The translations under genes were made by a program, and so were the position numbers. The notes beneath the pieces were generated by a model. The model was not told where the DNA came from and made no database searches. It saw only the letters and a program-made list of their open reading frames with translations. From a virus (lineage: Duplodnaviria > Caudoviricetes), in the IMG/VR virus record IMGVR_UViG_3300033405_000062, positions 1 to 29,054 of that record: 29,054 nucleotides of DNA. One strand, 5' to 3'. This document shows positions 4,354 through 27,445 of this stretch, one piece after another (positions within the stretch are counted from its first letter, which is position 1; each line of letters begins with the position of its first letter).

Positions 4354-4575
4354 TCAATTACCGTCGCGGAGCCTGCGCAATGAGTCGGCCTGCTTGGCGA
4401 GAACAAGCGCGCCCGCAGAGCTATCATCGTCTACACGTTTAGACAATGCCGCTTCCACGGGCGGGAGCCACGCCCCGGCCCTGGATTTAATAGCTTCATG
4501 GACTGCATCGATGTGCCTGCCCATGGCTGTTGTTTTAGCCATAGCCTCATAAATACCCTTCGCCTCGTCCATCAT
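4354..4575 (-). CDS. Hypothetical protein, 73 aa
   Basis: ATGA overlap with the upstream SNF2 gene; GGGAG RBS. Confidence 0.6.
   Translation of the reverse strand: MMDEAKGIYEAMAKTTAMGRHIDAVHEAIKSRAGAWLPPVEAALSKRVDDDSSAGALVLAKQADSLRRLRDGN
4428..4445. repeat. 18-bp quasi-palindrome copy 1 (CGTCTACACGTTTAGACA), inside a CDS
   Basis: Matches the consensus TGTCTA(A/C)ACGTTTAGACA. Confidence 0.85.
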
Positions 4576-7500
4576 GCCGCTCCCTTCTCTTCCTCAGTCC
4601 CATTATTGATTCGCTCTTGCCGTGCCGAGGCAACACGGGCGGCGATCCCGGAATCCTCAAGTGAGCCCGGATCGGTCTCAAAGATCGCGCCTAGCCTCGC
4701 CTTGCGCTGTATCCGGTCCCATTTCTCAGCTTCGTGCCCGGTGTTCGTTACAAGATCGTGGTAGTCTATCTCGTCATGAGCCTGCCCGAAGCGGTCTATG
4801 CGTCCTTCCCGCTGTTCCTTGACCCACGCGGTCTGAGGGAGGTCATAATTGACGAGATATTTCGCGTTTTGCAGGTTGAGACCTGTCGCGCCCGCGTCGG
4901 AGAGTACAACGAGGTCATATTTCCGATCTTCCGGCCTTGACGGATGGAACCCAACCTTGATCTTTTCTTTCTCGGCTCCCGACATTGTGCCGGTTATGAC
5001 GCCGACGCGAAGGCCCTTCTTAGCCATGGCTACCCGTATCGCTTCGACAGAGGCCAGATTATGCGCGAAGACGACACCGGGCGCCCGGTCCCCGGCCTTA
5101 GCATTGTTCTTCTCGTTGGCCTCGGCGTAGCACTTTGATTCTATTATCTCGCCGAGCTTGTTCATTTTCGCGTTGTCCCCGTCGAAAGTATTCACGACCC
5201 TGTTGAGCGCTTCCTCTTTTATCGTGCCCGCCGCCTGCTGTACGCGCTTGGCGATCGACTCGTAATCGCTCTCGGGCTTCCCGTCGAAGCTATGCGGGGA
5301 AAGGACTCGTACCGCGTCGACATCGACTGTTCCGGCCCTGTTCGCCCTTGAGCAGCGCCGAAAAGCCGCCTCGACTTCGGCATACGCTTGTTTCTGATCG
5401 TCGGACAGATTGATTGATTCTTTTGTCCGGTTTTTCTTGATGCCTGTTTCCGTTGGACTCGCATAGCAATATCGACCGACCAGGCGTTGCAATGATTCTT
5501 TATCGAAATCAGAATCGACGCCATAGCGCTTGATGAAGCCGTTCCTGTCGGAAAATTTATCCGGCGCGACTTTATGGAGCATGTCGAAGGCTTCCGAGAT
5601 ATCATTCTTGACCGGCGTCGCTGTTTGATTCATGAAGTAGGGAGTATTGGCATTGAGCGCGTCTATAACGTTAGCCAGAGACGAGTCATCCTTGCCTTTC
5701 CTGTTTGACGTGTAGTGGGCCTCGTCCACGGTGAGCATGTCGAAGGTTATTCCCTCATCCTTGAGCGTTTCCCCGAGATAGCTCGCCCGGTCCTTGGGAG
5801 ACATTGCCTCAAAGGAGGCCTTAGTCTCGTCCTCGCTCTTGTCCATACGTTTAGACATAAGGTACACGAGATCGTCCCTGAGTGATTGATGCGTCATCAC
5901 ACACATATGGTTACCGGACGTATCGCGCATTGCCGATATCCGTTCGTCCCGAGATAGGGCAGGGTCCGACGATACCTTATATTTCCCCGGAGTGCAGAAC
6001 ACATTCACTTCCCCGCCAAATTGCATTTGGACCACCGAGGGGACAGCGAATATTGCGCGCTTAGCTTTCCCTTGAGCGTTTAGGTCCGTGAAGGAACCTA
6101 TCGACATAATCGTTTTCCCCTTGCCCGTACCGAAAGTCAGGTTCATTCGTTTCGTGCGCTCGAACATTTTTATGGCGCGCTGCCGCTCGCCGGAGGCTTG
6201 CATGGTTGAGACTGCGAACTTCTGGCCGCGTAATTGATTCTGTGCGAGTTCGGGAAGCATCGAGGCGAGCTGAGACTCGGCCCTAGCACCGATGGATAGC
6301 CGCTTCGTTCCATCGTCCTGTTCGAGCTCGGCATCATCGAACATTGAACCCTGGGCTGACTGAGCCGCGCGTTCCTTAGCCATATACTCGATTGCCTTCT
6401 CGCGCCATGAGCCGGCAGCGAACTTCCCACCCGAACGATTAGCCACGGTCGCGCCCGCAGATGCCAATTCGGCCTGCACTTTGTTTATGATGGAATCGCG
6501 CTCAGTTTTCCCAAGCATTCCAAGCCGATGCGCCCCCGCCTCCGCTATGTCCGACTGCTTGACCGCGAGGGCCTTCTTGGCTACGCGGCGATAATTGTCT
6601 GAAAACTTCGAAAGGAAATTGCCCTTTATCGAATCCATGACGGCGGCCTGAGCTCTCCCGGTGTCGCCGTGCATTCGCACATACTCGGCCCAGGGCGAAT
6701 CTTCATGGCGTTCCGCTGATTCTCCCGCCGCATATTCATCCTCGGATATGCCTGACATCCATTTATGATAATGGCCTTGAAGCTCTGCACCATAAAGGGC
6801 CTTGAGCTTTCCCGGCAATTCCGACTTCTTGCGCTCTATCTCTTGCGCGACTCTTTCGGAGCTTTCGGTTATTCTCCCGGCCGCCGAGTCCTCTTGCAGC
6901 GTCTTAATGTCGTCGAATAATTGGGCCGCCCCCTTCACGCGGGCGTGACCATCCTTATCGAGGTAGCTGTCTACATCGTCAGGCTTCACGAGGCAGATAG
7001 GCGGTGTGTCCTTATTCCCCCACATATCCTCAGTCGTCCGCTGAGTCATATCATCCTTGATCGCCTCGTAGGCCCCCGCCTCATCCCCGCCGTTCTGGGA
7101 AATAAAAGACTTCCAGGCCCCCGCATGAGTCTTCCCCTTCTCGCCCTGGAAACCCCTCACCGATTGCCGATCAGCCGTCGACCCCTTGTAGATATTGTTT
7201 TCCCAATAGCGCCGCAGATCGGTTTGTTGCGCGGGCGATAATTCATCGACCTTTGAGAACGCGAAAGCCCCCTCGGGAATCTCGCCAAGGGATCGGTGGG
7301 CCGCTTCCTGTGCCGCCTTCATCCCCTCGGCGTCGTCGGCGATCGATTGATTGTCGATATCCCCGGACGGAAGCGCAGCATTCTCGCCAGGATCTTCATA
7401 GGACTCGACGGGGCGACAGGCCAGGCCAGCGGGAAGCCAGCCGTCCTCGTCGTAGACGCCACGCTTGATATCGTCTATCTCTTGATCGAGATTTATCTCT

Positions 7501-9569
7501 TCCGGGTCAACCGCGTGGACGAGCTTATCTATCCCCGTCTTACTGATAGTCGCGATTCGATCGCCATTCACCGTCTCGATGGAATAATCGCCCTTATCGA
7601 GCCCGAGAGCCCTAAGACGCGTGACGGCATCCCCGGACGATATCGCCCCAAGGTTTGACTCGATCTTGTCGAGAGTCGCGCCGCCCTGGGCGACTTGCCC
7701 TAGCATTGCCGTAGATTCGAGTCGGCCAAGGGTCTGCCCAAGGATACGGTTTGATTCATCGAGATAATTACGACGCGCCTCGTTTAGCTCATTAAGCACA
7801 GTAAGGTCGTCAGGATTTTCAGCTTTCAGCTTGTCGATATCCGCGCGAACTTCCTCGGCTTTAGAAAGGAGCTCGGCTGATGTATCGACCGCCTGCCGTA
7901 CAAGCTCTTCACTTGTCTCCGAGTGATACGCCTTTATTCCTTCGACCGCATCGCCGAAGTCTTCCGGCGACATAGAATCGTGCATTACCTTCGACAGCAA
8001 TTGCGCCCCAGCGCGGACACCGAGAACATCAACCACGTCTCGGGAAATCATCGAATCTTTCAAAATGGAAAGCGAGGCGAGATTGAGCCCATCGTAATTC
8101 CCGTTCGCGATCCACTTCGAGGAGCCGTCAGGATTCGCCTTTATCTTGTCGAGGAGCGATCCGTTGACCTCGGCCTGCCGCTCACCCTCTAAGCGCTCGG
8201 CCTCGCGGGCAACATCATTCATGAAGCTCTCTACGGGAGCTACTTCACGGTCAAGGCACAGTCCGTCGCCCCAGGACATATCGACCCCGCTCTTCTCCGG
8301 CGTCGCTTCGTTGGCGTTCTCAATCTTCGCCATTTCTGATTTATACTCGTAGTATGCCTTGAGCACTTCGACCTTATTGTCGATATCGGTGACCTTGTTG
8401 GCGAGCCTGTCCCGTTCGTAAAACTCTCGCCTAATCTCTCCCTGGATTTTCTTTGTCTCAATCCCCTTCTTTACCATGTTCGCCAAGGTGGGATTCGAGA
8501 GCGCTATTTTCTCCATGCTCGCATCAAACAGTTCTTTCTTCTCAGCCGCGAGCGCTTCATCCGTTAGGCCGCCGTTTTTGGCAAGATTGCCATACTCGGT
8601 CTGGAACCCTTTCCCATTATTTGAATTGGTCGTGCGGATAACCTCATCGGCTTGTGTTCTGTCACCGAGCTTCGCTTCGATAAGACTGCGCACGGCCTCG
8701 TCGGCTACGGACTCTTCATGGATAGCGCGAACAGCCCCTCGCCCGGCTGCCACCATATTCGATTGTTGAGCCTTGAGGGCCTTCTCGTAGCCCTTATCGA
8801 TATTTTTAAGGTTCTTCTCAGCCGCTTTTATCTCTCCCTTGTCCTTGCCTTTTGTAGCGGCCTGTAGTTCGCGCTCGGCGACAGCGCGGCCCTCTTGGTA
8901 GCGTGCCGCAATCTCGTCGGTTCTATCGGCCCATCCAAGGAGCGATGCCATGCGTTTAGCGAAAGAGTTTTTGGTCTCGTTTTTTTGCGTCTTGATGACA
9001 GCTTCTTTCGACTTGGCCGCTTCTCGCCTCGCCTTCTCGTTTTCTCGAAGCACTTTGCGCTCGGCAGGCGTTAGCCCTACTTCGACCTTCTTCTTGTCAG
9101 CGCGCTCGACCTCACGCTCGGACTGCTCTTGCATGCGCCTCGCCCTTGTAGTCGCCTCGTAGTCTTCCTTGCTCTTTATATTGTCGAGCTTGAGCATGTT
9201 CAGCGCGCCATGGGCGCCCCCGACGACGTGAGCCTTCCCGCCAGAATCTTCCTGGATAATAACCGGAACGCCCTTCTCGTCTCTCCCGTTTGGATGCATC
9301 GTTATCCAACGCTGCCCCGCCCCGAGACTCGAGGCCGCCTTGGCGTGCGCGGCGGGGGATATCCCCGCTGGAATGGCCGCGCCGCTTCCCGTCGCCGATT
9401 GCGCCTTCGTGAACCTCGCCATGAGCGATAGGCTCTTGCGCATACGAAAATATTCACGAAGCGTCAACGGCTGATAGTCATCGGCCTCGAGGCGAAGCGT
9501 CTTGCTACCTTGATATTCGTCAACCGCTTCCCGAGAGTATGAGTATCCTTGAATCGAAAACAATTCCAT
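4572..9569 (-). CDS. Large (~1665 aa) protein with a C-terminal SNF2/SF2 helicase-ATPase; probable head-packaged polyvalent-type protein
   Basis: Walker A TFGTGKGKT, DEAH, QTATP, SDAGATGLNLQ, QREGRIDR. Start probably ATG 9569 (GGGGTAGGGGA upstream) rather than 9599. The ~1100-aa N-terminal region is helical and unassigned. Confidence 0.8.
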   Translation of the reverse strand: MELFSIQGYSYSREAVDEYQGSKTLRLEADDYQPLTLREYFRMRKSLSLMARFTKAQSATGSGAAIPAGISPAAHAKAASSLGAGQRWITMHPNGRDEKGVPVIIQEDSGGKAHVVGGAHGALNMLKLDNIKSKEDYEATTRARRMQEQSEREVERADKKKVEVGLTPAERKVLRENEKARREAAKSKEAVIKTQKNETKNSFAKRMASLLGWADRTDEIAARYQEGRAVAERELQAATKGKDKGEIKAAEKNLKNIDKGYEKALKAQQSNMVAAGRGAVRAIHEESVADEAVRSLIEAKLGDRTQADEVIRTTNSNNGKGFQTEYGNLAKNGGLTDEALAAEKKELFDASMEKIALSNPTLANMVKKGIETKKIQGEIRREFYERDRLANKVTDIDNKVEVLKAYYEYKSEMAKIENANEATPEKSGVDMSWGDGLCLDREVAPVESFMNDVAREAERLEGERQAEVNGSLLDKIKANPDGSSKWIANGNYDGLNLASLSILKDSMISRDVVDVLGVRAGAQLLSKVMHDSMSPEDFGDAVEGIKAYHSETSEELVRQAVDTSAELLSKAEEVRADIDKLKAENPDDLTVLNELNEARRNYLDESNRILGQTLGRLESTAMLGQVAQGGATLDKIESNLGAISSGDAVTRLRALGLDKGDYSIETVNGDRIATISKTGIDKLVHAVDPEEINLDQEIDDIKRGVYDEDGWLPAGLACRPVESYEDPGENAALPSGDIDNQSIADDAEGMKAAQEAAHRSLGEIPEGAFAFSKVDELSPAQQTDLRRYWENNIYKGSTADRQSVRGFQGEKGKTHAGAWKSFISQNGGDEAGAYEAIKDDMTQRTTEDMWGNKDTPPICLVKPDDVDSYLDKDGHARVKGAAQLFDDIKTLQEDSAAGRITESSERVAQEIERKKSELPGKLKALYGAELQGHYHKWMSGISEDEYAAGESAERHEDSPWAEYVRMHGDTGRAQAAVMDSIKGNFLSKFSDNYRRVAKKALAVKQSDIAEAGAHRLGMLGKTERDSIINKVQAELASAGATVANRSGGKFAAGSWREKAIEYMAKERAAQSAQGSMFDDAELEQDDGTKRLSIGARAESQLASMLPELAQNQLRGQKFAVSTMQASGERQRAIKMFERTKRMNLTFGTGKGKTIMSIGSFTDLNAQGKAKRAIFAVPSVVQMQFGGEVNVFCTPGKYKVSSDPALSRDERISAMRDTSGNHMCVMTHQSLRDDLVYLMSKRMDKSEDETKASFEAMSPKDRASYLGETLKDEGITFDMLTVDEAHYTSNRKGKDDSSLANVIDALNANTPYFMNQTATPVKNDISEAFDMLHKVAPDKFSDRNGFIKRYGVDSDFDKESLQRLVGRYCYASPTETGIKKNRTKESINLSDDQKQAYAEVEAAFRRCSRANRAGTVDVDAVRVLSPHSFDGKPESDYESIAKRVQQAAGTIKEEALNRVVNTFDGDNAKMNKLGEIIESKCYAEANEKNNAKAGDRAPGVVFAHNLASVEAIRVAMAKKGLRVGVITGTMSGAEKEKIKVGFHPSRPEDRKYDLVVLSDAGATGLNLQNAKYLVNYDLPQTAWVKEQREGRIDRFGQAHDEIDYHDLVTNTGHEAEKWDRIQRKARLGAIFETDPGSLEDSGIAARVASARQERINNGTEEEKGAA
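5840..5857. repeat. 18-bp quasi-palindrome copy 2 (TGTCCATACGTTTAGACA), inside a CDS
   Basis: Shares the invariant CGTTTAGACA. Confidence 0.7.
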
Positions 9570-9580
9570 TCCCCTACCCC

Positions 9581-9598
9581 TGTCTACGCGTTTAGACA
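9581..9598. repeat. 18-bp quasi-palindrome copy 3 (TGTCTACGCGTTTAGACA), overlapping the InPase stop codon
   Basis: Shares the invariant CGTTTAGACA. Confidence 0.85.
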
Positions 9599-10059
9599 TG
9601 CACGACTAATCGCTTGCCCTTGTTGTTTTTATCGAGCGCCAATGCTTTGAAGTCGTCGATATCGATCTTGTTCATTGATCCGAAGAATCCGGGACGATCA
9701 TACTGCGAGAGATAAGCAGCCTTAGCCGCCCGAGCGGAGCCGAAACCAATCATGCACTTGTCCTCATCGTATTTCCCCGTCACCGGATCATTCTGATGGA
9801 CGACATAGACAATCGGGGCTTCCTCTTCTGGGCCGATGTAGCAGTCAAGGTGGTCCTTGTCCTTCCCGACCGTTCCCAGAATATACCCATAGGCGAAGTG
9901 CATCTTTGTCGCCCACCTGTGGCCATCTTTGTCGACGCCACGGCGCACCGAGCCCTTCTTGTTCTCGATGCTAATCTCGAGGCCCGCGATAGTCCGTCGC
10001 CCTTGCAGCTTGTGGCCGGAGAAGGTGAGCGACTTCGCCAAAGGAATTACCAACAACAC
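9592..10059 (-). CDS. Inorganic pyrophosphatase-like (InPase) domain protein of the phage polyvalent-protein type, 155 aa
   Basis: ISIENKKGSVRRG, YGYILGTVGKDKDHLDCYIGP, YDEDKCMIGF and AKAAYL motifs. Confidence 0.82.
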   Translation of the reverse strand: MLLVIPLAKSLTFSGHKLQGRRTIAGLEISIENKKGSVRRGVDKDGHRWATKMHFAYGYILGTVGKDKDHLDCYIGPEEEAPIVYVVHQNDPVTGKYDEDKCMIGFGSARAAKAAYLSQYDRPGFFGSMNKIDIDDFKALALDKNNKGKRLVVHV

Positions 10060-10068
10060 ATGGGCATC

Positions 10069-10485
10069 CTAGAATCCCGCGTCTTGATCGATGAGCGTAT
10101 AGTGATGGTCGTTCCCGTCGTCATCGGTCCAGTCGCAATCCGACGTAATCTCTCGATGTTGGCCGTGATAGTAGGCCCCGGCCAAGACTGTGCGGAAAAG
10201 AGAATTGTGCCAAGAACGATTGAGCGCGAGCTGATCGGCATAGCCGCCCATGAACCAAGCGCCTTTGTCGTTGTAATACTTTGCCAGTGCGGCCTTGATT
10301 GCCCACCAATAAATACCAAAGGTCTTATATTGCTCGGGGTCTTTTTCGAGGATCTTCCCCACCGCAAGCGCCGTGCGCCGGACATACGACTCGCCACCCG
10401 GTACTTTGAGCATCGGCTCTAGCTTGTCTATGTCCTCATTGCTGTAGTACATACGCATGGCCCCCTTGCACATATACCTTACCAT
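10069..10485 (-). CDS. Hypothetical protein, up to 138 aa (aromatic-rich)
   Basis: Fills the gap between co-oriented genes with tight spacing; start uncertain. Confidence 0.7.
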   Translation of the reverse strand: MVRYMCKGAMRMYYSNEDIDKLEPMLKVPGGESYVRRTALAVGKILEKDPEQYKTFGIYWWAIKAALAKYYNDKGAWFMGGYADQLALNRSWHNSLFRTVLAGAYYHGQHREITSDCDWTDDDGNDHHYTLIDQDAGF

Positions 10486-10488
10486 GCT

Positions 10489-13400
10489 TTATCGACTTAG
10501 CGATATCTTCGTGCGGCTCTTCCCGGAAGTATTGATGATACTGGCCATCCTTACCTTTTCATAGTCGCCCTCGAGGTCAGGGTGCCCCTGTAGACCACTT
10601 TCAATCTCATAGGCGTCATTGCCCGTCGTGTTCGCGATATCGTCTGTGCTCACCCACCCCTCAACATCCTTTTTCTCTTTCGCGAAGGCGCCATACGCCT
10701 TCTTATTGTCCTCGTCCGCAAAATACCGATTCAGCTTTGCCTCATGCACGACCGCAGGCCGAGCCACGTCCCCGTGTATTTTGCTTATTCCATATTCATA
10801 GGTCGACATACTGAGCTTACCGGTCTTTAGTCCATTCTCTATCTTCGTGCGTCCCTCGGCGGAGTATGGATTTATTATAGTAGCTCCCTCGACGTAATCA
10901 GCCCTCCCCGCCGTGCCTATATTCCCGTCCGGTGCCTCCAATATCCACTGAGGCGAATCGGAACCGTAATCGGCATGTATTTTCATGTAGTCGTCATAGT
11001 TCGACTCTTTGTACTCGCGGGGGGAGGACTCAAAGGCTTTGGGGTCAGATAGTTTGGTGAATCGCTCCACGTCGGCAGGGGAAGGATTCGGAATCAGCTC
11101 GCCACCGTCATCTCTACGGAAACTCTTCATCCCATTGGTAGCTGCTTGCATTTTCCCCACAGGCTCGCCACTCAGCATGGAAGTAACATCGTATTCCCGG
11201 TTCTTATAATCAAAGCCCGACACCCTGAGCATCTTGTGGTCCTTGATTACAATATCTCCCATGCGAACGACTCTGTGGTTGCGCTCGTCATAGATAAAGG
11301 CAGGAGGCTTGTCGCCCAGCAGCTCGGGATAGCGAAACTCGGGGTTTCGCTTGAGAGCGCTGTCGAGATTGCTAATGCGATCGAGCCTATTCTGATATTC
11401 GCGTGAGCTCTTGTCCCCCTTGAAGGAGGAGAGCGCACCCCGCATAAGGGAGAGAGCGCGGAGCTGTTTATACGCCTTATGCGTGTTGTCCTTAATATCC
11501 TTCTCTTTCTTTTTCGTATCCATGAGAGCCCGCCGCTCAGTGGCGTCCTTGGCGTTGCCGAACTCCTCGGATAACGATATGAGTAATTCGTCCATGCTCA
11601 TCCCGTCAGAATCAGGATTCAAGAACACGCTTGCTTTCGTCCTCAGGAGTTGGTTTATCCAATTCTGTTTTTTCCCAACAAGGCCCATCGAATAGTTATC
11701 GATTGTACCCCGTGCGGCATAGGTGTGCAGCTCGACCTTTTCTTGCCCATTTCCTTGCCGATCTATACGACCATTCCGCTGTATGAAATCGGCCGGTCTA
11801 TAGGGAATATCAAAATGGTGGAGGGCTGAGCTGTCTTTTTGCAAGTTGACGCCCTCGCCTATCGTCTGAGTCGTCCCTATGAGGATCTTATATTTAGGAG
11901 GCTTGGTCATATTGCCGTCAAAATCATAAACGCCATTGAATCCATCGATTGCGTCCTGGACCGCATCATCGGTAGCCTTTTCGGCCATTTTAACGCCGGA
12001 CTTCGTGATACCGTTTATTATGCCTATCTCTTCCGGTTTGAAGCCGCGAGCGACAAGCGACGCCTTTATTTTTTCGTGCATATTGAGCGTACCGTCGCCG
12101 GATAGAACACGGTCGCAGAAGATAACCTGGCCGCCGCCACGCTTTTCCCTAATATTGGCCGCGTTGTCGGCGAGCATTTCTAGCTTTGGATTCTTCCAGC
12201 CTTTGTATTTTTGTGGATCATACAATTCAAGATCGAGCGAGAGGGTGCGCATGTCCCCGTAAAAGGAGAGAAAGCCACGGCCGCCGTATTTTTCTTTCCT
12301 CTCCTCTGCTGTCATCTTTGAAAACGTCTCAATCTCGGCCGCAAGAGCCTTCACTTCTTTTACTTGCGCCTCATCCTGATCGATAATATTCGGCCTATTG
12401 TCGGGAGTAGGCTTTTTTAATCCGATTGCCTCAGGATCGTTTTGTAGGTCGGTGTACTTGAAAAATAGAGATTGCAATGTCGGGAGATTCTTGTATCCCG
12501 AAAACTTTCGGCTAGTTTTGCTCTCGCCGCCAGCCCAGGAATAATCATCGGAATCGGCAATAACGGCGAAGTTGTTTATGAAGTCGTCGATATTATTGAG
12601 ATTGAGACGCGAAAGCTCCTCAGGAGCAACATGATAGAGCATATTGTAGTATTCAAGTGGAGAATTGGTCATCGGCGTAGCCGTCAGAAGAAAGACGTTT
12701 TTGTTGTCATGGTTCCGGCGAATGTATTCGCACTTCTTGAAAAACGCCATTGCCCTATCGGAATGTCGCCCATCATTTATCCCAGTCTCGCGAGATAAAC
12801 TTGAACTCCATAAAGCCTTGTATGTGTGAGCCTCATCGCAGAATATGGCGTCGCATCCAAAATCCTCGAAGGTAATGGTATGGTTTGTCTTTCCATTTTG
12901 CAGCTTGCTCTCCGCGCTATCCGTCAGTTTTATCTTGATCCGCTCGCTTTTGCCTTCTTTCTTTTTAGAGGTTATCTGTGCGGCCACAGAATCGGTAATT
13001 TCTTGATCGTGCTCTGCCGAAAGCTGGATCTCGCTCGCGCAGGACTCGGAGAGGATAATGGCGTCGTAATCGCCAGACGCAAGCTCTTGGTATCGCTTGA
13101 GACGCCCCTCTTGCGTCGACATCCCCCGAGCACTCGTATCAACGTAGCCGATCTTGAGCCCCGGCATATTCTCCGCAAACTCGGCCACCCAATCCTTGAC
13201 CTTGTTATTGGGCACCTGGAAAAGAGGGCGCTTAACCTTGCCCTCTTGGCGAAGAAGTGCAAACAGGCCAACTGCACTGAGCGTTTTGCCAAACCCAGTC
13301 CCGAGCGCCGATATTCCCTTGCCTTGACGATAAAGATGGTGGATGGTTTGCCATTGATGCGGCTGTAGCGTTTTCTTGCCGCTCCATCCATCCAGCTTCA

Positions 13401-16400
13401 CCGTGTAGGTCTTCGTTGGTGACCCGAGTTCGTTGCGATAGAGGCGGTTGAAAATCTCCTCGGCTTCCTTGCGAACCTCTGGCTCATTCGCCAAAAACGA
13501 TTTGAAGTTCTCGAGCGCATCCTCGTTGTAGGCGTCCGTATCCATGTTGCCGCGTTGTTTCTGATTATTCAGGAAATAGACAAGCGGGTCGTTCTCCTCG
13601 CGCCATTCGCCTTCGTTGTCGGTGATGTAGTTTCTGGTTTTGTAATCATAATGCCGCACATCCTTGCTGGCAATAATGCCCCACTTACCCTTCTCGTTTT
13701 TCGCATAGCTGAACCCATCGGGCGCGGGATGCCCCATGCCATCATCGGCCCATTTGTTGACGATATTCACGGGCACCCATGACGACTGAGGAGCCACGTC
13801 AGACTCCTCGATAGGCGTCCATCCGATTGCTTCACGTAGTTCCTGTATCCCGGCCTGCCACTTCTCACGGTTACGCTTATACTCAGAGCTAGTATAGGCA
13901 TCCACCGCAGCTTGCAAAGCGTCGATTTTCTGCCAGGCATCGCCCGACAGAAAGTCTTCTTTCGCCTGGAATATTCCCTCCGGCGTTACGAATACGTCCT
14001 CATTATTTGACCACATGGCCTCGATAAGAGCATCGGCCTCATTCGGGAAATATGCCTTGATAGTCTCGGGCGTCGCGTCGACCATGTATTCACGGATAGT
14101 ATTGAGCGCGGTTAGCTCTGGCTTGTGGCCGTCGACGATTTCAACTTCTTTGTTGAAGATGTTCTGTTTATTGAGGATGTCGCTATCCATATCGACGACC
14201 AGGGCCTCGGCGACGCCCGTAGTGTTCGGATGGGTGGCAAAGAAGCGCTTCAAGTCGCCGTCGTCCTTCGGAGTAGTCCCGAAATCCTTCTCGTAGGCTT
14301 CGAGGAGCGCCCGTGCTTGCCTTTGTAGGTCGTCTATCGGTTCATCCCTTGTCAGAGCCGCGCGGATACTCCTAATCGTCTCGGCGTATTCTTGCGCGCG
14401 AGCGATCTTTTGAGCCGTCAGCCCGTCCGAGTCCATTAGCTCCCATCGATGACTTTCATTGAGCCGATAGACCTTGCCATTGATCGTTTTCGTCATGCCG
14501 ACGTGCAGGGTTTTCGCAGCAAAGGCCGCAGCTTCCTCGGGGGCGAGCTTTTCGACTTCTTTATGGGCGGGCAGCTCGCGGCCCTTCGTGAGCTCGCGGA
14601 TCTTCCCGAAATCATCCCCGGTCTTCATTGCCACGGGGGAGAATTGCTCGATAGCCCGGTCCATGTCTTCCGGTGCCAGCTTCCCTACCGTTATCTCGGT
14701 ATTGAAGTTCCCCTTCGCGACGCGGCCAAGCCTATGCGCCGGATTCTCGTCGTAATACTTTCCGTCAACGAATGCATCGTCCCAAAATCCAGCCTTCTTT
14801 ACTTCCTCGTCGGTCATCATGACGAGGCGGTCGCGGATATCGTCGGGATAGGCCCGGAACATAACCACGTCGGGCGAGACGCCCGTGCCGGTATGCTTGA
14901 AGGACTCGTCCGGAAGCCGCACCGCCCCGATGAATTGACCCTTGCGGAGCATCACCGCGCGCCACTCGGCATTCCCCTTATTGTCGAGGACGCCCGAATG
15001 GACGATGAGCGCCATGGAACCACCGGGGGCGAGGTTGTCGAGTGATCGCGAGATGAAGTACCGATCGAGGCTTTTTTCGTCTGGCTCGTCCATGAATGAC
15101 GTTTCCACGGACCTGTCCCCGAATGGAGCGTTGCCTATAACCGCGTCGAAGCGATCACTGTAACAGAGATTGAATTGCTCGAAGGAAGAGCCATAGATCC
15201 TCGCTTTAGGCTGTAGGAGGCTCGCCGCGTGCGAGGTCCGGTTGTCGAACTCGACGCCCGTCAGGTCCACGCCATCGGGCGCTGCCTCGAAGAAGACGCC
15301 AGTGCCTGCTGAAGGCTCGAGCACCTTAGCCCCGGCATGAACCGGCGCGAACTTATTCATGAGCTTCCAGACCATGCGGGCGACAGGCGGCGAGGTGTAG
15401 AAATCATAGAGCACTCCGCGCTCGCCCTCGGCCTTTACGCCTCCGAAGCCCGAGTAGAGGCGAATCTTGTCCATTTCCTCCGGCTTGATCTCGTCAGAAG
15501 GCAGCATGAGCAGCTCGGCGACTTCCTGATTGAGCGTTGCGCGCTTGGCCGGAGTTAGATTTTTTCCCTTAGCGGACCAGGAGCCGTAGTCGCGAAACTT
15601 GGTTTTCGTAATCGGCTTGGCGAGCTCGGCCTGAATCTTTCCCGAATTGACCCCTGGGTCGGGAGCAGCCTCGGGCTTTGGGAGCCGATCGGCGACAGGA
15701 GAGGGCACAACAGCCTCGGAATTGGCTGGATTCGCGGCTTCTTGGGGCGCCAATGGCCCCTTGGTATCCGGGACATCGCCGAATGCGGCTATCGCTTTCT
15801 CGCGCGAGGGGAAGGCCCCTAGGCGTTCCCCGTTTGAATCTATCGCCACATGGGCGACTCGACTTCCGCTTTTCCCGGCCTGAATCTCGGTTGTAACCCA
15901 TCCAACCGCCTCGCCACAGCGCTTTATGACGGAAGGCTTATTAGGGCCGCGATCTTCGACCGTCATCGCGGCAGATTGCTCGCCCTCAGGGGCCTTGCTG
16001 GCGACTTTCTCGGGCTCGGGCGCGCGGAATTTGCTAAAAGCCTTCCGGGCCATCGCCTCGTTCGGATAGAACGTAATCGAGGGCACCGTCTCGCCCGCAT
16101 CGGTATCATCGAGCCGAATACCAAACTTCCCGGCATTCCCCCCGGTGTAATACTTCATGAGAACGGCGCGCGTGCCATTCTCTTTATCCTCTACCGAGTC
16201 TATTTCCTCAACGTCTTTCTGCTTTTCCTGGCCCTTGGCTTCCTCCGCAGGCTTCGGTTCGTCCACAGGCGCGCCCCACGCTTGACCTTCACCCTCGCCG
16301 AACAGGTCCGCCTCGTAGGTGTATTCCCCCACGATATCCGCCGCTTTTCCGCCCGCCTTCTTGTGCTTATCGATCATCTTCGCGTCGTCAGGCTTTATCC

Positions 16401-16518
16401 ATCCCGTGCGAAACCCGAGCGCGCCCTTGGCCGTATGGAAAGGTAGGTCGGTTCTCCAAACGAGGCCAGGACGAGCCTTTTTGATATCGTCAGCAGAAAC
16501 AGGTAATACCAGACGCAT
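10489..16518 (-). CDS. DarB-like N6-adenine DNA methyltransferase fused to an SNF2 helicase, 2009 aa
   Basis: MTase motifs FYTSP, VLEPSAGTGVF and VIGNAPFG; helicase motifs LQPHQ, GTGFGKT, DEAH, LTATP, GEGVNLQ and QRNGRIDRQG. Domain order matches P1 DarB. Confidence 0.85.
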   Translation of the reverse strand: MRLVLPVSADDIKKARPGLVWRTDLPFHTAKGALGFRTGWIKPDDAKMIDKHKKAGGKAADIVGEYTYEADLFGEGEGQAWGAPVDEPKPAEEAKGQEKQKDVEEIDSVEDKENGTRAVLMKYYTGGNAGKFGIRLDDTDAGETVPSITFYPNEAMARKAFSKFRAPEPEKVASKAPEGEQSAAMTVEDRGPNKPSVIKRCGEAVGWVTTEIQAGKSGSRVAHVAIDSNGERLGAFPSREKAIAAFGDVPDTKGPLAPQEAANPANSEAVVPSPVADRLPKPEAAPDPGVNSGKIQAELAKPITKTKFRDYGSWSAKGKNLTPAKRATLNQEVAELLMLPSDEIKPEEMDKIRLYSGFGGVKAEGERGVLYDFYTSPPVARMVWKLMNKFAPVHAGAKVLEPSAGTGVFFEAAPDGVDLTGVEFDNRTSHAASLLQPKARIYGSSFEQFNLCYSDRFDAVIGNAPFGDRSVETSFMDEPDEKSLDRYFISRSLDNLAPGGSMALIVHSGVLDNKGNAEWRAVMLRKGQFIGAVRLPDESFKHTGTGVSPDVVMFRAYPDDIRDRLVMMTDEEVKKAGFWDDAFVDGKYYDENPAHRLGRVAKGNFNTEITVGKLAPEDMDRAIEQFSPVAMKTGDDFGKIRELTKGRELPAHKEVEKLAPEEAAAFAAKTLHVGMTKTINGKVYRLNESHRWELMDSDGLTAQKIARAQEYAETIRSIRAALTRDEPIDDLQRQARALLEAYEKDFGTTPKDDGDLKRFFATHPNTTGVAEALVVDMDSDILNKQNIFNKEVEIVDGHKPELTALNTIREYMVDATPETIKAYFPNEADALIEAMWSNNEDVFVTPEGIFQAKEDFLSGDAWQKIDALQAAVDAYTSSEYKRNREKWQAGIQELREAIGWTPIEESDVAPQSSWVPVNIVNKWADDGMGHPAPDGFSYAKNEKGKWGIIASKDVRHYDYKTRNYITDNEGEWREENDPLVYFLNNQKQRGNMDTDAYNEDALENFKSFLANEPEVRKEAEEIFNRLYRNELGSPTKTYTVKLDGWSGKKTLQPHQWQTIHHLYRQGKGISALGTGFGKTLSAVGLFALLRQEGKVKRPLFQVPNNKVKDWVAEFAENMPGLKIGYVDTSARGMSTQEGRLKRYQELASGDYDAIILSESCASEIQLSAEHDQEITDSVAAQITSKKKEGKSERIKIKLTDSAESKLQNGKTNHTITFEDFGCDAIFCDEAHTYKALWSSSLSRETGINDGRHSDRAMAFFKKCEYIRRNHDNKNVFLLTATPMTNSPLEYYNMLYHVAPEELSRLNLNNIDDFINNFAVIADSDDYSWAGGESKTSRKFSGYKNLPTLQSLFFKYTDLQNDPEAIGLKKPTPDNRPNIIDQDEAQVKEVKALAAEIETFSKMTAEERKEKYGGRGFLSFYGDMRTLSLDLELYDPQKYKGWKNPKLEMLADNAANIREKRGGGQVIFCDRVLSGDGTLNMHEKIKASLVARGFKPEEIGIINGITKSGVKMAEKATDDAVQDAIDGFNGVYDFDGNMTKPPKYKILIGTTQTIGEGVNLQKDSSALHHFDIPYRPADFIQRNGRIDRQGNGQEKVELHTYAARGTIDNYSMGLVGKKQNWINQLLRTKASVFLNPDSDGMSMDELLISLSEEFGNAKDATERRALMDTKKKEKDIKDNTHKAYKQLRALSLMRGALSSFKGDKSSREYQNRLDRISNLDSALKRNPEFRYPELLGDKPPAFIYDERNHRVVRMGDIVIKDHKMLRVSGFDYKNREYDVTSMLSGEPVGKMQAATNGMKSFRRDDGGELIPNPSPADVERFTKLSDPKAFESSPREYKESNYDDYMKIHADYGSDSPQWILEAPDGNIGTAGRADYVEGATIINPYSAEGRTKIENGLKTGKLSMSTYEYGISKIHGDVARPAVVHEAKLNRYFADEDNKKAYGAFAKEKKDVEGWVSTDDIANTTGNDAYEIESGLQGHPDLEGDYEKVRMASIINTSGKSRTKISLSR

Positions 16519-16527
16519 ATAGACCCC

Positions 16528-17721
16528 TTATTCGGCTTTCTTCTTATTCGCTAAAGGACTCGGGAAATACCGCATCCAGGAGCCCCTGCACCAAGGGTGT
16601 ACGACTCCCGCAGGCGCCCACCAGGCGGCCTGCTTGCGGCCGATATTTGACTTGCCTTCCCATATCGCCACAGGCGCTATAGGATCGTCGATTTTATCGT
16701 CGTCTAGAGGATGATCCACCCACAAGGCGATAAGGCCACGGATTTTTGAGCAGTAGCCGCAGACATATCCATCGCGCATTTCCATCCGCTTGAAGTAGAG
16801 CTTTTCGCCCGCCTTGGCCGTGGCGGCTTGCTCTCGCAGGAAGGCATTATCGAACGTGTTGACCGTCTCGGTCTCGGCTATTCGGCGCCAGTCTCGGTTT
16901 AGCTCGCCCATTTTATTAAAAAGGTTCTGCGCAATCTGCGACTTGCTCTCTCGACTCGCAATACCGTCAACAATAGTACGCCGTACCGCGTGCTTGGTGT
17001 CGTCCTCGATCTTGGTTATATGGTCGCCTATCGATTGCTCGCCAAGCTCGACGGCCTCGGCGACGCGGTGATAGTGCTCAATCATCTGTTCGCGCTCATC
17101 GGGGCTTGCTGGGCCAAAGAGCTTATCTTGCCGCGCTAGATCCTCGGCGAGCCAGTCGACCGACCGCTTTTGATATTCGACCTCTTTAAGCGGCACCTTC
17201 CAGAGCTCGGCCGATGGATTTTCCATAAGCTTGCGCGCCATGACGCGGCCCAGGGCGACTGAATCGAGTACGATTTTTCGGCCCTCATTGTCTATGCGTT
17301 TAGACAAGAACCGTTCGAGGGCCTTTATGACTTTCTCGAAATCGGCCCGATAGATAGGCTTTCCCGTCTCGGGATTGAAGAGGATCTTCCCGTGATACCA
17401 AATGGCCTCTGAAACCGGGCGAGGGGGGCCGCTCTCGTCTTCTATGGATTTCGAGAAGGTAGTCACCAGAGGAAGGTCGAAAACGTCGCATACCGTCGCA
17501 TATACAGCGTCGAGCGTTTCTCCCATCCGTTGTGCTATGCCATCCACAAGGTCTTCCTCGGCCTTGAAAACAAAATCCTCGGCGTATTCCTCGTCCCTTG
17601 GCTTTATGGTCAGAGGAAGGCCCATCGCCTTCGATAGAGACTCGGTTGCAGCAAGGAACTTATCGCGCCGATTATTTTCGGTTATCCCCGCGACAGTGAG
17701 ACGTATATCGTTCACGAGCAC
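16528..17721 (-). CDS. Head morphogenesis protein (SPP1 gp7/Mu gpF-like), 397 aa
   Basis: WRRIAETE, CGYC and HPWCRGSW motifs; located downstream of the portal. Confidence 0.8.
   Translation of the reverse strand: MLVNDIRLTVAGITENNRRDKFLAATESLSKAMGLPLTIKPRDEEYAEDFVFKAEEDLVDGIAQRMGETLDAVYATVCDVFDLPLVTTFSKSIEDESGPPRPVSEAIWYHGKILFNPETGKPIYRADFEKVIKALERFLSKRIDNEGRKIVLDSVALGRVMARKLMENPSAELWKVPLKEVEYQKRSVDWLAEDLARQDKLFGPASPDEREQMIEHYHRVAEAVELGEQSIGDHITKIEDDTKHAVRRTIVDGIASRESKSQIAQNLFNKMGELNRDWRRIAETETVNTFDNAFLREQAATAKAGEKLYFKRMEMRDGYVCGYCSKIRGLIALWVDHPLDDDKIDDPIAPVAIWEGKSNIGRKQAAWWAPAGVVHPWCRGSWMRYFPSPLANKKKAE
17289..17306. repeat. 18-bp quasi-palindrome copy 4 (TGTCTATGCGTTTAGACA), inside a CDS
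   Basis: Shares the invariant CGTTTAGACA. Confidence 0.8.
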
Positions 17722-21581: not shown

Positions 21582-21831
21582 TCTTTGTGGCTCCATCGGC
21601 CCATGCAATAGCAACCATGACACCAACCACTCCGATCACCGCAGGAAGGCCGATGCCACCACATAGTCCGACAGTAAAAAAAATAACCACGTCGACAAAT
21701 CGCTTCCACTGATTCTCTGGGACCAGTGAGCAGATCCAGGGCGTCAGCAGGCAGAAAATGCCAATAAAGACCCCGACCGCAAGAATCGCCGCAATGCAGT
21801 TCCCAATAGCCAGCCTCATGTTTCGCTTCAT
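21568..21831 (-). CDS. Small membrane protein with two hydrophobic segments, 87 aa
   Basis: GAGGA RBS before ATG 21831; two long hydrophobic stretches. Confidence 0.6.
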   Translation of the reverse strand: MKRNMRLAIGNCIAAILAVGVFIGIFCLLTPWICSLVPENQWKRFVDVVIFFTVGLCGGIGLPAVIGVVGVMVAIAWADGATKNVGD

Positions 21832-21845
21832 ATTTTCCTCTTTAA

Positions 21846-21863
21846 CGTCTACACGTTTAGACA
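21846..21863. repeat. 18-bp quasi-palindrome copy 5 (CGTCTACACGTTTAGACA), just past the tRNA 3' end
   Basis: Shares the invariant CGTTTAGACA. Confidence 0.85.
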
Positions 21864-21864
21864 T

Positions 21865-21936
21865 TCCGGGCGGTAGGGATCGAACCTACGAATAACGGAG
21901 CCAAAATCCGACGCCTTACCGCTTGGCTACGCCCGG
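21865..21936 (-). tRNA. tRNA-Gln (anticodon TTG), CCA not encoded
   Basis: CCGGGCG-TA-GCC-AAGCGGTAA-GGC-G-TCGGA-TTTTGGC-TCCGT-TATTC-GTAGG-TTCGATC-CCTAC-CGCCCGG-A folds as a cloverleaf, with one mismatch at the top of the anticodon stem. Confidence 0.9.
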
Positions 21937-21965
21937 ATATGAAAAGGTGCCGCGAGGGCGAGCGC
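21923..21965. repeat. 43-bp bipartite direct repeat, copy A (overlaps the tRNA 5' end and leader)
   Basis: TTGGCTACGCCCGGA-N12-CCGCGAGGGCGAGCGC. Confidence 0.85.
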
Positions 21966-22001
21966 AGATGAGATAGACGGAGGTAGTGGCGTAGGTGCCA
22001 C

Positions 22002-22244
22002 TCATTCAGATATCCTCCCGGCAAAATGTATTCGAGCCTCGAGTTGGTACATATCCATGGCGACGAGTAGTTTCTCGGCCTCTTCTGGCTTTAACGAGTT
22101 GTGCAGTTCCGAGACCGCCTTGCCGATCCAATCAATTATTTCCTCTTCGCTGAAATGCTGCATAACCAATCCCGCCAGGAGCACTTCTAGGAGTGTTTTG
22201 TAATAACGAACATCCACAAGATCATCTTCGATCTTGCTCATCAT
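22002..22244 (-). CDS. Hypothetical protein, 80 aa
   Basis: ATGA overlap with the antA/B-like gene; helical acidic sequence MMSKIEDDLVDV... Confidence 0.6.
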   Translation of the reverse strand: MMSKIEDDLVDVRYYKTLLEVLLAGLVMQHFSEEEIIDWIGKAVSELHNSLKPEEAEKLLVAMDMYQLEARIHFAGRISE

Positions 22245-22918
22245 GCGGCCGTCTTGATCTGCCGAACCCCGAAGGCGGCGATAGCGATTTTGATCTGTGC
22301 ATAGTCGGCTCCGAGGTCGACCATGGAGCCCGCGAAGCGCTCGAGGCGCTCGACGGACACAAGCTGTACTTGCGTTAGGTGCTCGCGAACATTGGCATCC
22401 TTCTCGAGGCCCTTCGCCTCGCGGAAATGGCGCGCATCCATCCCGAGGACAACACGGTAGATGAGGTCGGTGATTTGCTTGTAGGCCCACCCGTGCATCG
22501 CCTCATTGAGGGGCGAGGTCTGAATTGTGTCAGTAAACTCGCGACGGACAATCTTGCTTGCCCTGGAGTCGATAATGATTTCCCGAAGGGCCTTCTCGCA
22601 TTGGAGGAAGTAGCGGCGCACTTCTTTTCCTTTATCGGTCCCGGCCATCATGCAGAAAGATTTGAAGCAGTCGGCAGAAAGCCAATAAACAGAAATGGGC
22701 TTGTTTTTGTAGCTTTTAAGTTCTCCACCTTTTTGTGTATTCTTTTTAGAACAATGAATTATTGAAAAATCTACACCCTCTTGGAAGTTTTCGCAGAGTG
22801 CCCGAAGTGCGCTGTCTTTTCGCGAATACCCGACCCACTGCCAAGCACGGTCGAAATCAATCGGAAACGCAGAATCGCTCTTGACGATCTCGCTGAATGT
22901 CTCGATAAGGTCGCTCAC
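22241..22918 (-). CDS. AntA/AntB-like antirepressor / phage DNA-binding protein, 225 aa
   Basis: GGGAGG RBS before GTG 22918; FPIDFDRAWQWVGY, FQEGVDF, DCFKSFCMMAGTDKGKEVRRYFLQCEK. Confidence 0.72.
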   Translation of the reverse strand: MSDLIETFSEIVKSDSAFPIDFDRAWQWVGYSRKDSALRALCENFQEGVDFSIIHCSKKNTQKGGELKSYKNKPISVYWLSADCFKSFCMMAGTDKGKEVRRYFLQCEKALREIIIDSRASKIVRREFTDTIQTSPLNEAMHGWAYKQITDLIYRVVLGMDARHFREAKGLEKDANVREHLTQVQLVSVERLERFAGSMVDLGADYAQIKIAIAAFGVRQIKTAA

Positions 22919-22930
22919 GACTACCTCCCT

Positions 22931-22973
22931 TTGGCTACGCCCGGACCAGCAAGACGCCCGCGAGAGCGAGCGC
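22931..22973. repeat. 43-bp bipartite direct repeat, copy B (abuts the antA/B RBS)
   Basis: TTGGCTACGCCCGGA-N12-CCGCGAGAGCGAGCGC. Confidence 0.85.
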
Positions 22974-22982
22974 CTTGAATTG

Positions 22983-23225
22983 TTACGCCTTGGCCGTCTT
23001 CTTTGCAACGAGGGCCTTCGCCTCATCGAACGCGATATCGATGTCGCCAACCGCAAGGGCCTTGTCGAGCGTGCGCAGCTCCTTTGCGAGGGCCTTCCGG
23101 GTAACCCTGATATTCGCGAGCGAAGGATTCTTGTTCGCATTAGCAAGCGCGGTGGTAGAGGCGGTAAGGTCTACCGTCGAGACAATCGAGGAAACCTTGG
23201 CGGCCTGCTTCTCGTTTAGTGTCAT
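22983..23225 (-). CDS. Small basic Ala/Lys-rich protein, 80 aa
   Basis: GGGAG RBS; lies directly downstream of the solitary CRISPR repeat. Confidence 0.65.
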   Translation of the reverse strand: MTLNEKQAAKVSSIVSTVDLTASTTALANANKNPSLANIRVTRKALAKELRTLDKALAVGDIDIAFDEAKALVAKKTAKA

Positions 23226-23286
23226 AATAACTCCCAAAAGTGAAATAGTCGGCCCACCAAGGAGCCGTATCGGAGAGGCTGGAATC

Positions 23287-23318
23287 GTTTCAATCCACGC
23301 GCCCGCGAAGGGCGCGAC
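23287..23318 (-). CRISPR. Solitary type I-C-like CRISPR repeat (no array, no cas genes)
   Basis: GTCGCGCCCTTCGCGGGCGCGTGGATTGAAAC: 32 nt, 7-bp hairpin, TGGATTGAAAC end. Confidence 0.88.
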
Positions 23319-23442
23319 TCCGTAAATACGTCATTAGCCTAGTAGGCGCGACGACTTGTCTAACCCCATCGCGCCTTATTAGGAACTGTTTTATCTTCGA
23401 TACCCCCTTGAATGTGTCTAGGGATGAACCCACGGAACCTAT

Positions 23443-23637
23443 CTAGGCCACACCGCGAGTAGCCGAGCACGGTTTCTTGTCGAAGATGCTGAGGAGCCGA
23501 TCGACTTGGGCATCCACTATGCCGATGATCGTGATAGCCGGTCGGGAAACGGGCCGGACGAGATCCGCGAGAAAATCGCGGAGGTCCACGTACATGGCAG
23601 TTGCCCACAGAGAAATAAACAGCAGGAATGAACGCAT
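23443..23637 (-). CDS. Hypothetical protein, 64 aa, hydrophobic N-terminus
   Basis: AAGGAGG RBS before ATG 23637. Confidence 0.5.
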   Translation of the reverse strand: MRSFLLFISLWATAMYVDLRDFLADLVRPVSRPAITIIGIVDAQVDRLLSIFDKKPCSATRGVA

Positions 23638-23771
23638 CTCTTTACCTCCTTTCATTGGATTTTATTTGCACCTATCACCAGTTACAGAAAAGATGCGCCA
23701 GAAGGCTCGCTCTCCGTTTGTCGGTCAGGTGGCCCGCGACATCCCCCGGCGCCGGGACTTTAAGCGAGCCA

Positions 23772-24134
23772 CTAGGAGGAGACCGCAGCGGGGACCACGG
23801 CGGCCTTGTCGCCCTCGAGCGCGCCAGGAAGCGCGGTCGGGTCGGCAGCCACGGCAGGCTCAATGGGAACGGCATCAGAGGCGACCTGAGCATCCGTGTT
23901 CTGCCCGAGCTTGGCCGCGAGCGCGTCGCGGTCCCGCTGGATAAGGGCGAGGGCATCGGCGATTGCCGCCTCGGTGTCTTTGCCGATATCCTCGCCTACC
24001 TTGATTTCCTTGTCCTCGACGTGGAGCGCGATCTCCTCGAGAGCCTTCTTTGCAGCGGTCAGCTTATCCACGAGGATAGCTTTATCGCTCTTGAAGGCGG
24101 CCTTGATCTTAGCCGCAATGTCCTTGAAACTCAC
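23772..24134 (-). CDS. Hypothetical Ala-rich coiled-coil protein, 120 aa
   Basis: GGAGG RBS before GTG 24134. Confidence 0.65.
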   Translation of the reverse strand: MSFKDIAAKIKAAFKSDKAILVDKLTAAKKALEEIALHVEDKEIKVGEDIGKDTEAAIADALALIQRDRDALAAKLGQNTDAQVASDAVPIEPAVAADPTALPGALEGDKAAVVPAAVSS

Positions 24135-24178
24135 AGAAGCCTCCAATTGTAAAAATGTGAACCCCGCTATGCGGAGCA

Positions 24179-24904
24179 TTATGCGATGACGGCGAGCGTG
24201 TCAGGACAATTCGCCTTGAGCCAGTCGGAGATAGACTCCATGGCCCTGGGCTTCCAGGCGCCGCCATCCGCCTCATGGAGCGATATGGTCACCGTTCCCT
24301 CGGAGTCGGCGCGCATGCGGAAAAGAAACTCGCCCGCAGGCTGGGTAATCTCGCGGAAGGTGCGGAAGGGCTGGAGGGTAACACGAGAAGGCGCCGCCTT
24401 GTTTTCCGTGAGGTTTCCGCGCGTCCCCTGCCGGACGGTGACATTCTGAGATATCCCGGTATCAGCAATCTCGCTTTCGTTGGATACCGTGATCCTCGAG
24501 GCAAGGCTAAGGAGATCATCGCGAGTATCCGTTTGGATGATGAGCGCGTTCGCCGCGATAATGAACTCTTCGATGCTCAACCACTTGCCGAAGGGAAACA
24601 CGATGCCGTCGAAGTCGGCGACTAGGAAGGAATCACGCTTGCGGTTCTCGCCGTTCAGATCCGAGAGAAGTACGACCTGAGTGGGGGAAACGACATGCAC
24701 GATGAGCTTTGAAAGATCTAGGGCGTCTCGGTTTGCTTTCAGGTAGTCGGAGATAGCCGTGAGGCTTTGGACCTTTATAGCGTCCGGCCTTGGATTATAC
24801 ATGACCGGCTTCATTTCGAGCGGCGAATAAATCCGGCCATCCTTCTCGATCTTCACGCTTTCGTTGGAGATGCGCTCTACCGCATCAACAAAACTACCAT
24901 CCAT
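24179..24904 (-). CDS. Conserved phage protein (YfdQ/DUF2303-like), 241 aa
   Basis: SLTAISDYL, LIVHVVSP, DTGISQ, LQPFRTFREITQP and EADGGAWK are motifs of a widespread prophage family found paired with the upstream gene. Confidence 0.65.
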   Translation of the reverse strand: MDGSFVDAVERISNESVKIEKDGRIYSPLEMKPVMYNPRPDAIKVQSLTAISDYLKANRDALDLSKLIVHVVSPTQVVLLSDLNGENRKRDSFLVADFDGIVFPFGKWLSIEEFIIAANALIIQTDTRDDLLSLASRITVSNESEIADTGISQNVTVRQGTRGNLTENKAAPSRVTLQPFRTFREITQPAGEFLFRMRADSEGTVTISLHEADGGAWKPRAMESISDWLKANCPDTLAVIA

Positions 24905-25386: not shown

Positions 25387-25390
25387 CGTT

Positions 25391-25408
25391 TGTCTACACG
25401 TTTAGACA
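25391..25408. repeat. 18-bp quasi-palindrome copy 6 (TGTCTACACGTTTAGACA), intergenic
   Basis: One mismatch from the perfect palindrome TGTCTAAACGTTTAGACA. Confidence 0.88.
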
Positions 25409-25412
25409 AGAT

Positions 25413-27336: not shown

Positions 27337-27407
27337 GCAGCGCCCTAGTCCCCGCACGTCCATGCGAGCACGTTATTTTTGTACACCTGTAGCCCAGTTT
27401 ATGTCAA

Positions 27408-27425
27408 CCGCTAAACGTTTAGACA
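27408..27425. repeat. 18-bp quasi-palindrome copy 7 (CCGCTAAACGTTTAGACA), abutting a minus-strand TTGACA (27402-27407)
   Basis: Shares the invariant CGTTTAGACA; core CTAAACGTTTAG is perfectly palindromic. Confidence 0.8.
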
Positions 27426-27445
27426 AGAGTTTAGTTCCACAGGGG

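Follow-up and report, generated by a model that had tools for sequence, protein, structure and literature searches.

The window analysed, a whole contig of 29,054 nt, carried genes for capsid, protease, portal, head-morphogenesis, DarB-like, Ulx-like and antirepressor proteins, as obtained from a family search with 34 chosen ORFs, and it also encoded a tRNA-Gln. None of these 34 ORFs matched cas families, in agreement with the initial annotation, which had reported no cas genes in the window. The element of interest was located between ORFs 23655-23443 and 23225-22983 (Table 1), with short unsupported ORFs overlapping it mechanically, and no sigma-70 consensus promoter was found in positions 21800-24300. 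The runs listed as containing the contig were peat metagenomes, and the same peat runs contained CRISPR arrays with repeats differing by 0-4 letters from the phage repeat. A 1,180-nt contig of run X2, which belongs to another study than the possible source run X1, covered positions 22756-23935, including the whole element, with 0 differences; this ruled out a mis-assembly of the repeat locus. A metagenome scan (27 of 64 parts) returned the present contig alone; an 84%-identical relative is P0002.

Table 1. Features of the repeat locus and its two flanking genes, in order of the minus strand.
Feature	Position	Strand	Basis or remark
Upstream 70-aa ORF	23443..23655	-	No family match
Hairpin A, 11 bp, z -3.3, without U-tract; mutually exclusive with the outer stem	23344..23376	-	Folding
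GTCGCGCC, described initially as a partial repeat; supplies the 5' arm of the 14-bp outer stem (predicted) as well as the 3' arm of hairpin A, and is no repeat unit	23338..23352	-	Folding
5' arm of the predicted 10-bp inner stem; pairs with 23275-23266 and encloses the repeat	23318..23330	-	Folding
Solitary 32-nt type I-C CRISPR repeat	23287..23318	-	Sequence match, folding
Repeat hairpin, 7 bp	23316-23298	-	Folding
Predicted Cas5d cut	between 23298 and 23297	-	Site as given in PMC5965381; a prediction for the present RNA
11-nt 5' handle	23297-23287	-	Prediction
17-19-nt segment behind the repeat (would-be pseudo-spacer); no target found	23268..23286	-	Sequence searches
Hairpin B (the second hairpin), weak; 23262-23248 alternatively pairs with 23352-23338	23250..23267	-	Folding
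Shine-Dalgarno (SD)-like GGGAG	23235-23231	-	Sequence
80-aa four-helix protein, function not assigned	22983..23225	-	Structure model, pLDDT 82 (15-sequence)

Other features of the contig were observed outside this locus. Positions 4572-16518, between the portal/head-morphogenesis and the protease/capsid genes, held two large genes with helicase domains (one of them DarB-like, with an N6 methylase), followed in the list of products by a Ulx-like and an InPase-domain gene; their order is shared with the prophage G008:C113, and we regard the group as an antirestriction block of P1-like type, carried here by a probable spirochaete phage. The tRNA-Gln gene has its first 15 nt, along with a portion of the sequence before it (22931-22973), duplicated about 1 kb upstream (21923-21965), just before the antirepressor-like gene, as if the block of this gene had been inserted with duplication. 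The last part of the contig (27940-29054) contained a gene of the TetR family and a partial, divergent one; the two may derive from the host or be cargo. An 18-nt imperfect palindrome (TGTCTA-N6-TAGACA type) appeared in about seven copies, both intergenic and intragenic (4424-4446, 5830-5858, 9577-9599, 17285-17307, 21842-21864, 25387-25409, and 27404-27426), and half-sites were noted near 23420 and within the hairpin A loop; it is possibly the operator of a phage regulator, and none was seen in the G008 prophage.

The initial annotation had placed an intact solitary type I-C repeat on the minus strand of the locus, and this proved correct, the repeat being present in a single copy and identical over 32/32 letters to the repeats of real I-C arrays. 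When a genome collection was scanned with the last 30 nt of the repeat, the exact 32-mer was obtained in all the loci recovered (58/58; about 39 genomes from many phyla, including five spirochaetes), and 969 of their 1,033 spacers were 33-36 nt long; the match is far beyond chance. Arrays with the exact repeat adjoined a cas5d match over the family cut-off in genomes G003 (21 copies) and G005 (27 copies), and the repeat was therefore assigned to type I-C. Since the repeat is spread over many phyla, the host cannot be told from it. As reported in PMC5965381, Cas5d cleaves the 7-bp hairpin with 11-nt tail of the I-C repeat, and the hairpin of the present repeat was predicted with a probability of at least 0.99 for the seven transcript 5' ends that were folded. 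The locus corresponded to a solitary repeat unit (SRU), for which at least 90% identity and coverage, an intergenic position in a mobile element, and no full or >70% partial repeat within 100 bp are considered, the last as described in PMC10651486. Identity to the array repeats of the genome collection was complete, the contig around this intergenic repeat carries capsid, portal and protease genes, and the best local score on either flank was 16/32 in our SRUFinder-like approximation of the published filter. A CRISPR mini-array, with at least two repeats in register around a 30-38-nt spacer, was not present, the runner-up match anywhere in the contig reaching 20/32 and the 8-mer upstream being out of register. 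Repeat and segment together gave 0 matches in IMG/VR. Two degenerate I-C mini-arrays of 2-3 repeats were observed in another genome, G164 (L117 and L118), on contigs separate from its cas5d contig.

The order to which G001 belongs (G001 is recorded as Rectinemataceae, order Treponematales) was represented by 301 genomes, and 14 of these encoded relatives of the capsid protein, with a best value of 56% as compared to 26-30% for the 12 named phages listed of 164. The closest prophage, G008:C113, was syntenic with the window over nine genes (41-71% identity). Its genome possesses cas5d and a repeat alike in 28/32 letters, and its family includes G001, G003, and G005, all of them with the exact repeat. 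The comparison with host I-C repeats that the initial annotation had proposed yielded the exact repeat in three genomes from the same family as that of the closest prophage, a family standing in for the true host. Cas5d appeared over the cut-off in 53 of the 301 genomes of the likely order. From the capsid search, the synteny and the matching I-C systems, we infer a spirochaete host; this assignment is tentative because the capsid search among bacterial genomes was confined to the order of G001, and because none of the host spacers (sets of 1,033, 471, and 1,614, which overlap) matched the phage beyond short chance matches, the best being a 29-nt, 90% partial one. No lone repeat at 23/32 or better was found in the fetched stretches of capsid-bearing relatives, G008:C113:1-40000 included, and the repeat is therefore no conserved feature among phages of this group.

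A comparison set of 65 distinct viral lone repeats with full flanks was gathered from 136 IMG/VR loci (second scan, 44 of 64 parts), 338 array-type matches and those with short flanks having been dropped. Against this background the flanking features of the initial annotation stood in part. The supposed partial repeat-like start 34 nt upstream does begin at 23352, but its match to the repeat comprised only 8 nt, the start-to-start distance was 34 nt vs. about 65-68 nt in arrays, it has no 5' handle and in the predicted fold it forms the arm of a stem; among the other viral lone repeats, 0/65 had such an 8-nt copy of their start 34 nt upstream. The second hairpin was present at 23267-23250 but was weak (-9.4 kcal/mol in a 32-nt window, -8 or better being reached by 25/65 of the others), its region resembled the repeat in 16/32 letters only, and it was not called in a terminator scan, no clear U-tract being found. 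With a hairpin so weak and so unlike the repeat, the segment described as a 19-nt pseudo-spacer, which does occupy 23286-23268, has no defined length and may be read as 17 or 19 nt.

For a transcript starting at 23352, the predicted fold paired 23352-23338 with 23262-23248 (14 bp) and 23330-23318 with 23275-23266 (10 bp), the hairpin of the repeat forming the tip (z -3.3; 1/200 shuffles). When only the flanks were shuffled and the repeat was kept, 12/1000 sequences folded as well; the flank duplex gave a p of 0.0035 for a rod that was noticed post hoc, and an equally strong duplex occurred at 82 of 2,895 positions of the contig. The long stem predicted around the repeat would thus be of modest significance. 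Only 2/65 of the other viral lone repeats displayed an enclosing flank duplex at p 0.05, which led us to reject an enclosing stem as a class-wide trait, and an equal count of cross-pairs was obtained in 5/65. Among the seven starts folded, the rod dominated only for 5' ends 23360 and 23352, whereas hairpin A was formed in longer transcripts and hairpin B in shorter ones. The seed positions of the segment were mostly paired in the predicted fold of the naked RNA.

Direct duplications of at least 8 nt across the repeat were found in 8/65 lone repeats vs. one in the control, the longest at the present element being 5 nt. Five lone I-C repeats (L253, L262, L227, L246, and L320) were observed with flanking direct duplications up to spacer length (34 nt in L253, 18 nt exact in L262), which suggests capture by spacer-protospacer recombination or mis-assembly; a literature search outside subscription journals found nothing on protospacer duplication at lone repeats. 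Downstream hairpins (8-30 nt) at -12 kcal/mol were present in 13 vs. 2 of 65 (control), with an overall Wilcoxon p of 0.15. Downstream gene starts within 70 nt showed no excess on the sense strand (14 vs. 15 of 65), and a class-wide placement of lone repeats in 5'UTRs was rejected. Several viral lone repeats abut a ribosome-binding site, among them that of phage G747, in which the exact 32-mer occurred as a lone repeat (L388, (-)2288) immediately before the site, its flanks being predicted to form pairs across it. Phage G748 contained a look-alike of 23/32 (L391, (-)17952) with a short tandem hairpin behind it, and 0/200 shuffled repeats reached 23/32. Both phages share a gene with the window, as described below. 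Such recurrence of lone copies in gene-sharing phages mildly favors a function, and a shared pool of hosts could also explain it.

The 80-aa protein encoded downstream gave 15 matches, one of them a long chance match that was dropped, leaving 14 short relatives. It had no family or fold match at E 0.001, the Atlas gave no usable match, and the family was present in 0 of 401 genomes of the order. Two of the five viral loci with relatives contained full-length ones (G747 and G748), each directly after an AAA_24 ATPase in a replication module. No repeat was found within 4 kb of these two; the lone repeat of G747 lies about 5.7 kb upstream of its family gene, in another context than that of the window. 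At L382 (3134-4790) and L383 (2861-4876), relatives were observed between the AAA_24 ATPase and a gene that is SSB/DUF669-like by eye, with no Pfam match, a layout that resembles the Healer pair as described in PMC13687109. No known acr or aca gene was detected next to the repeat by general family searches and, for the 80-aa protein, fold searches, the neighbors being small ORFs without family match.

Type I-C systems use a TTC/TTN PAM, with a wobble at every sixth position, and this was consistent with the host CreR-like controls used in the searches for targets of the segment. In 60 loci (58 around cas5d matches plus the two G164 mini-array contigs; 796 kb), TTN-seed targets amounted to 3 vs. 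a shuffled mean of 7.3, and the longest run, 10 nt, was equalled or exceeded by 36/100 shuffles. The initial annotation had pointed to host cas promoters as possible targets of a crRNA-like repressor; a tolerant PAM-flanked search of 119 CRISPR/cas loci gave nothing above chance (2 vs. 2.5 and 0 vs. 0.8 by chance), and the sole near-cas match (L168) lay about 1 kb upstream of cas3, just beyond an unrelated gene. As positive control, the same logic in the same loci provided a 12-18-nt TTN-PAM match within 230 nt for 4/5 host CreR-like elements. These elements were observed in or near I-C loci (L150, (-)4800; L158, (+)4930; L184, (+)5405; L016, (-)18659; L035, (-)4392), three of them (L150, L158, and L184) just upstream of cas3 in genomes of the spirochaete order. 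They share with the phage element the handle, a short segment and in some cases a hairpin, but they reside in host CRISPR/cas loci, the 5' half of their repeat being usually degenerate, and the phage segment resembled none of the host elements or spacers (best, 14/19 among 1,963).

Phages, also named by the initial annotation as a place to search, gave one chance-level match in IMG/VR and no TTC-PAM match in G747 or G748. A self-target within the phage was discarded, the best being 9/15 with PAM. A search of 69 family genomes for TTC plus the first 11 nt of the segment gave 16 matches, spread over 15 genomes, vs. 0 for the reversed control, and in 16 vs. 6 (control) of 401 genomes in a wider search of the phylum; the excess over the reversed control in the family genomes is likely an effect of composition. 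The segment reads like tRNA positions 57-73. The 16 family matches ended at 12-14 nt and 17 further loci lay in stop-free frames of at least 152 codons; a tRNA was present in 0/16 and 0/17 of them, Rfam gave no tRNA signal, and the idea of a tRNA 3' end as target or remnant was therefore dropped.

Several explanations of the locus were weighed together. Cracrs are described as viral crRNA-like RNAs matching cas or creT promoters over at least 9 PAM-proximal nt, I-C cases included (bioRxiv 10.1101/2024.10.29.618823). If the element were one of them, its 11-nt handle, 17-19-nt guide and hairpin B as 3' end would load the Cascade of the host and silence, without cutting, the promoter of cas, creT or another defence gene. 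The architecture of CracrVA1 is likewise that of a single repeat with a short spacer-like segment and a hairpin behind it, I-C Cracr candidates have been reported in the same preprint, the likely order contains host elements of similar shape upstream of cas3, and strong downstream hairpins are commoner in viral lone repeats than in the control. However, the RNAs of that preprint match a cas or creT promoter and a host CreR/CreA spacer over at least 9 nt. No target rose above chance in the loci searched, and such a match to a cas/creT promoter or a host CreR spacer was therefore lacking in the 119 loci, from which the real host may be missing, whereas the same logic succeeded with most host elements; the hairpin is weak, without clear U-tract or terminator call, and the seed would be mostly paired in the naked RNA. 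We consider this promoter repressor, also put forward by the initial annotation, unlikely. A role in cis appears more doubtful still: the repeat, placed on the same strand 62 nt upstream of the ATG of the 80-aa gene, would be a Cas5d cut site in its leader, and the phage would sense the Cas5d of its host or employ it for processing or switching this mRNA. Several viral lone repeats abut a ribosome-binding site and alternative folds exist, but gene starts are not enriched on the sense strand and neither of the two full-length relatives of the gene has the repeat upstream. The predicted accessibility of the SD was the same whether the RNA was uncut, cut or covered by Cascade; a translational switch is disfavored by this result, and this variant was rejected. 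A literature search outside subscription journals found nothing on a Cas5d/UTR switch.

The repeat could also be an inert capture from a host array by recombination, possibly a decayed mini-array, and devoid of function. Its perfect identity to host repeats, the absence of the repeat from the syntenic G008 relative, the upstream 8-nt copy of the repeat start, which could be a deletion remnant and was seen in no other lone repeat, and the spacer-length duplications flanking some viral lone repeats (L253 and L262) point in this direction. On the other hand, no duplication beyond 5 nt spans the present repeat, its flanks are predicted to pair more strongly than shuffled ones, and the same exact repeat recurs alone in G747; on balance we find an inert origin rather improbable. 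Exact identity with host repeats is compatible both with a recent capture and with selection.

The best explanation, which we hold tentatively and at slightly below an even chance, is a Racr-type RNA decoy lowering host CRISPR immunity. The repeat is a solitary and intact I-C repeat running in the same direction as the flanking genes, without scar duplication, and it would likely be transcribed along with the neighboring minus-strand genes. Host Cas5d would then cut the repeat RNA at the base of the hairpin, and the resulting RNA would likely occupy Cas5d, Cas7, and Cas8c and guide them to no target, the benefit to the phage being a lowered I-C immunity. The RNA anti-CRISPR proposed by the initial annotation is thus supported as a candidate by the solitary intergenic repeat, the hairpin predicted for 7/7 transcript starts and a host family with matching I-C systems. 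Points that weigh against it are the lack of a sigma-70 consensus promoter in 21800-24300, of a known acr or aca neighbor and of a repeat near the two full-length relatives of the 80-aa gene, the absence of lone repeats from the fetched stretches of capsid-bearing relatives, and the failure of all 1,614 host spacers to match the phage. The marks of Racr membership considered were a host with the same subtype, transcription and processing, inhibition of interference and, typically although not necessarily, an acr gene within 1 kb. RacrIC1, a lone type I-C repeat, is reported to inhibit I-C immunity by itself, and about two thousand lone repeats have been catalogued in the same work (PMC10651486), the only one on RacrIC1 found in a search outside subscription journals. 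As described there, RacrIC1 shares with the present element a lone, intergenic and intact I-C repeat and a host group, here a likely one, with the same subtype. It differs in that it lies 11 nt downstream of acrIC5 and is transcribed and inhibitory, whereas the present repeat has no known acr neighbor, is a candidate, is exact instead of diverged and is predicted to lie within a long stem.

This stem raises one more possibility, to which we give a very small chance: a switchable RNA anti-CRISPR, in which the transcription start would toggle between decoy and crRNA-like short guide. With a 5' end just upstream of 23352 the flanks would close a 24-bp rod around the repeat; the halves cut by Cas5d would remain paired, with about 11 nt after the handle, Cas7 would be unable to polymerise and Cas5d would be trapped. 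In longer or shorter transcripts hairpin B would fold and produce a crRNA-like short guide. The predicted rod would acquire weight only with covariation in close relatives.

Both the decoy and the Cracr mechanisms are published classes that include I-C members (PMC10651486; bioRxiv 10.1101/2024.10.29.618823), and the main text of the latter contains neither "Spirochaet" nor "Treponema". If the repeat is active as a Racr decoy, a candidate from a probable spirochaete phage would join a class with one tested I-C member in PMC10651486.
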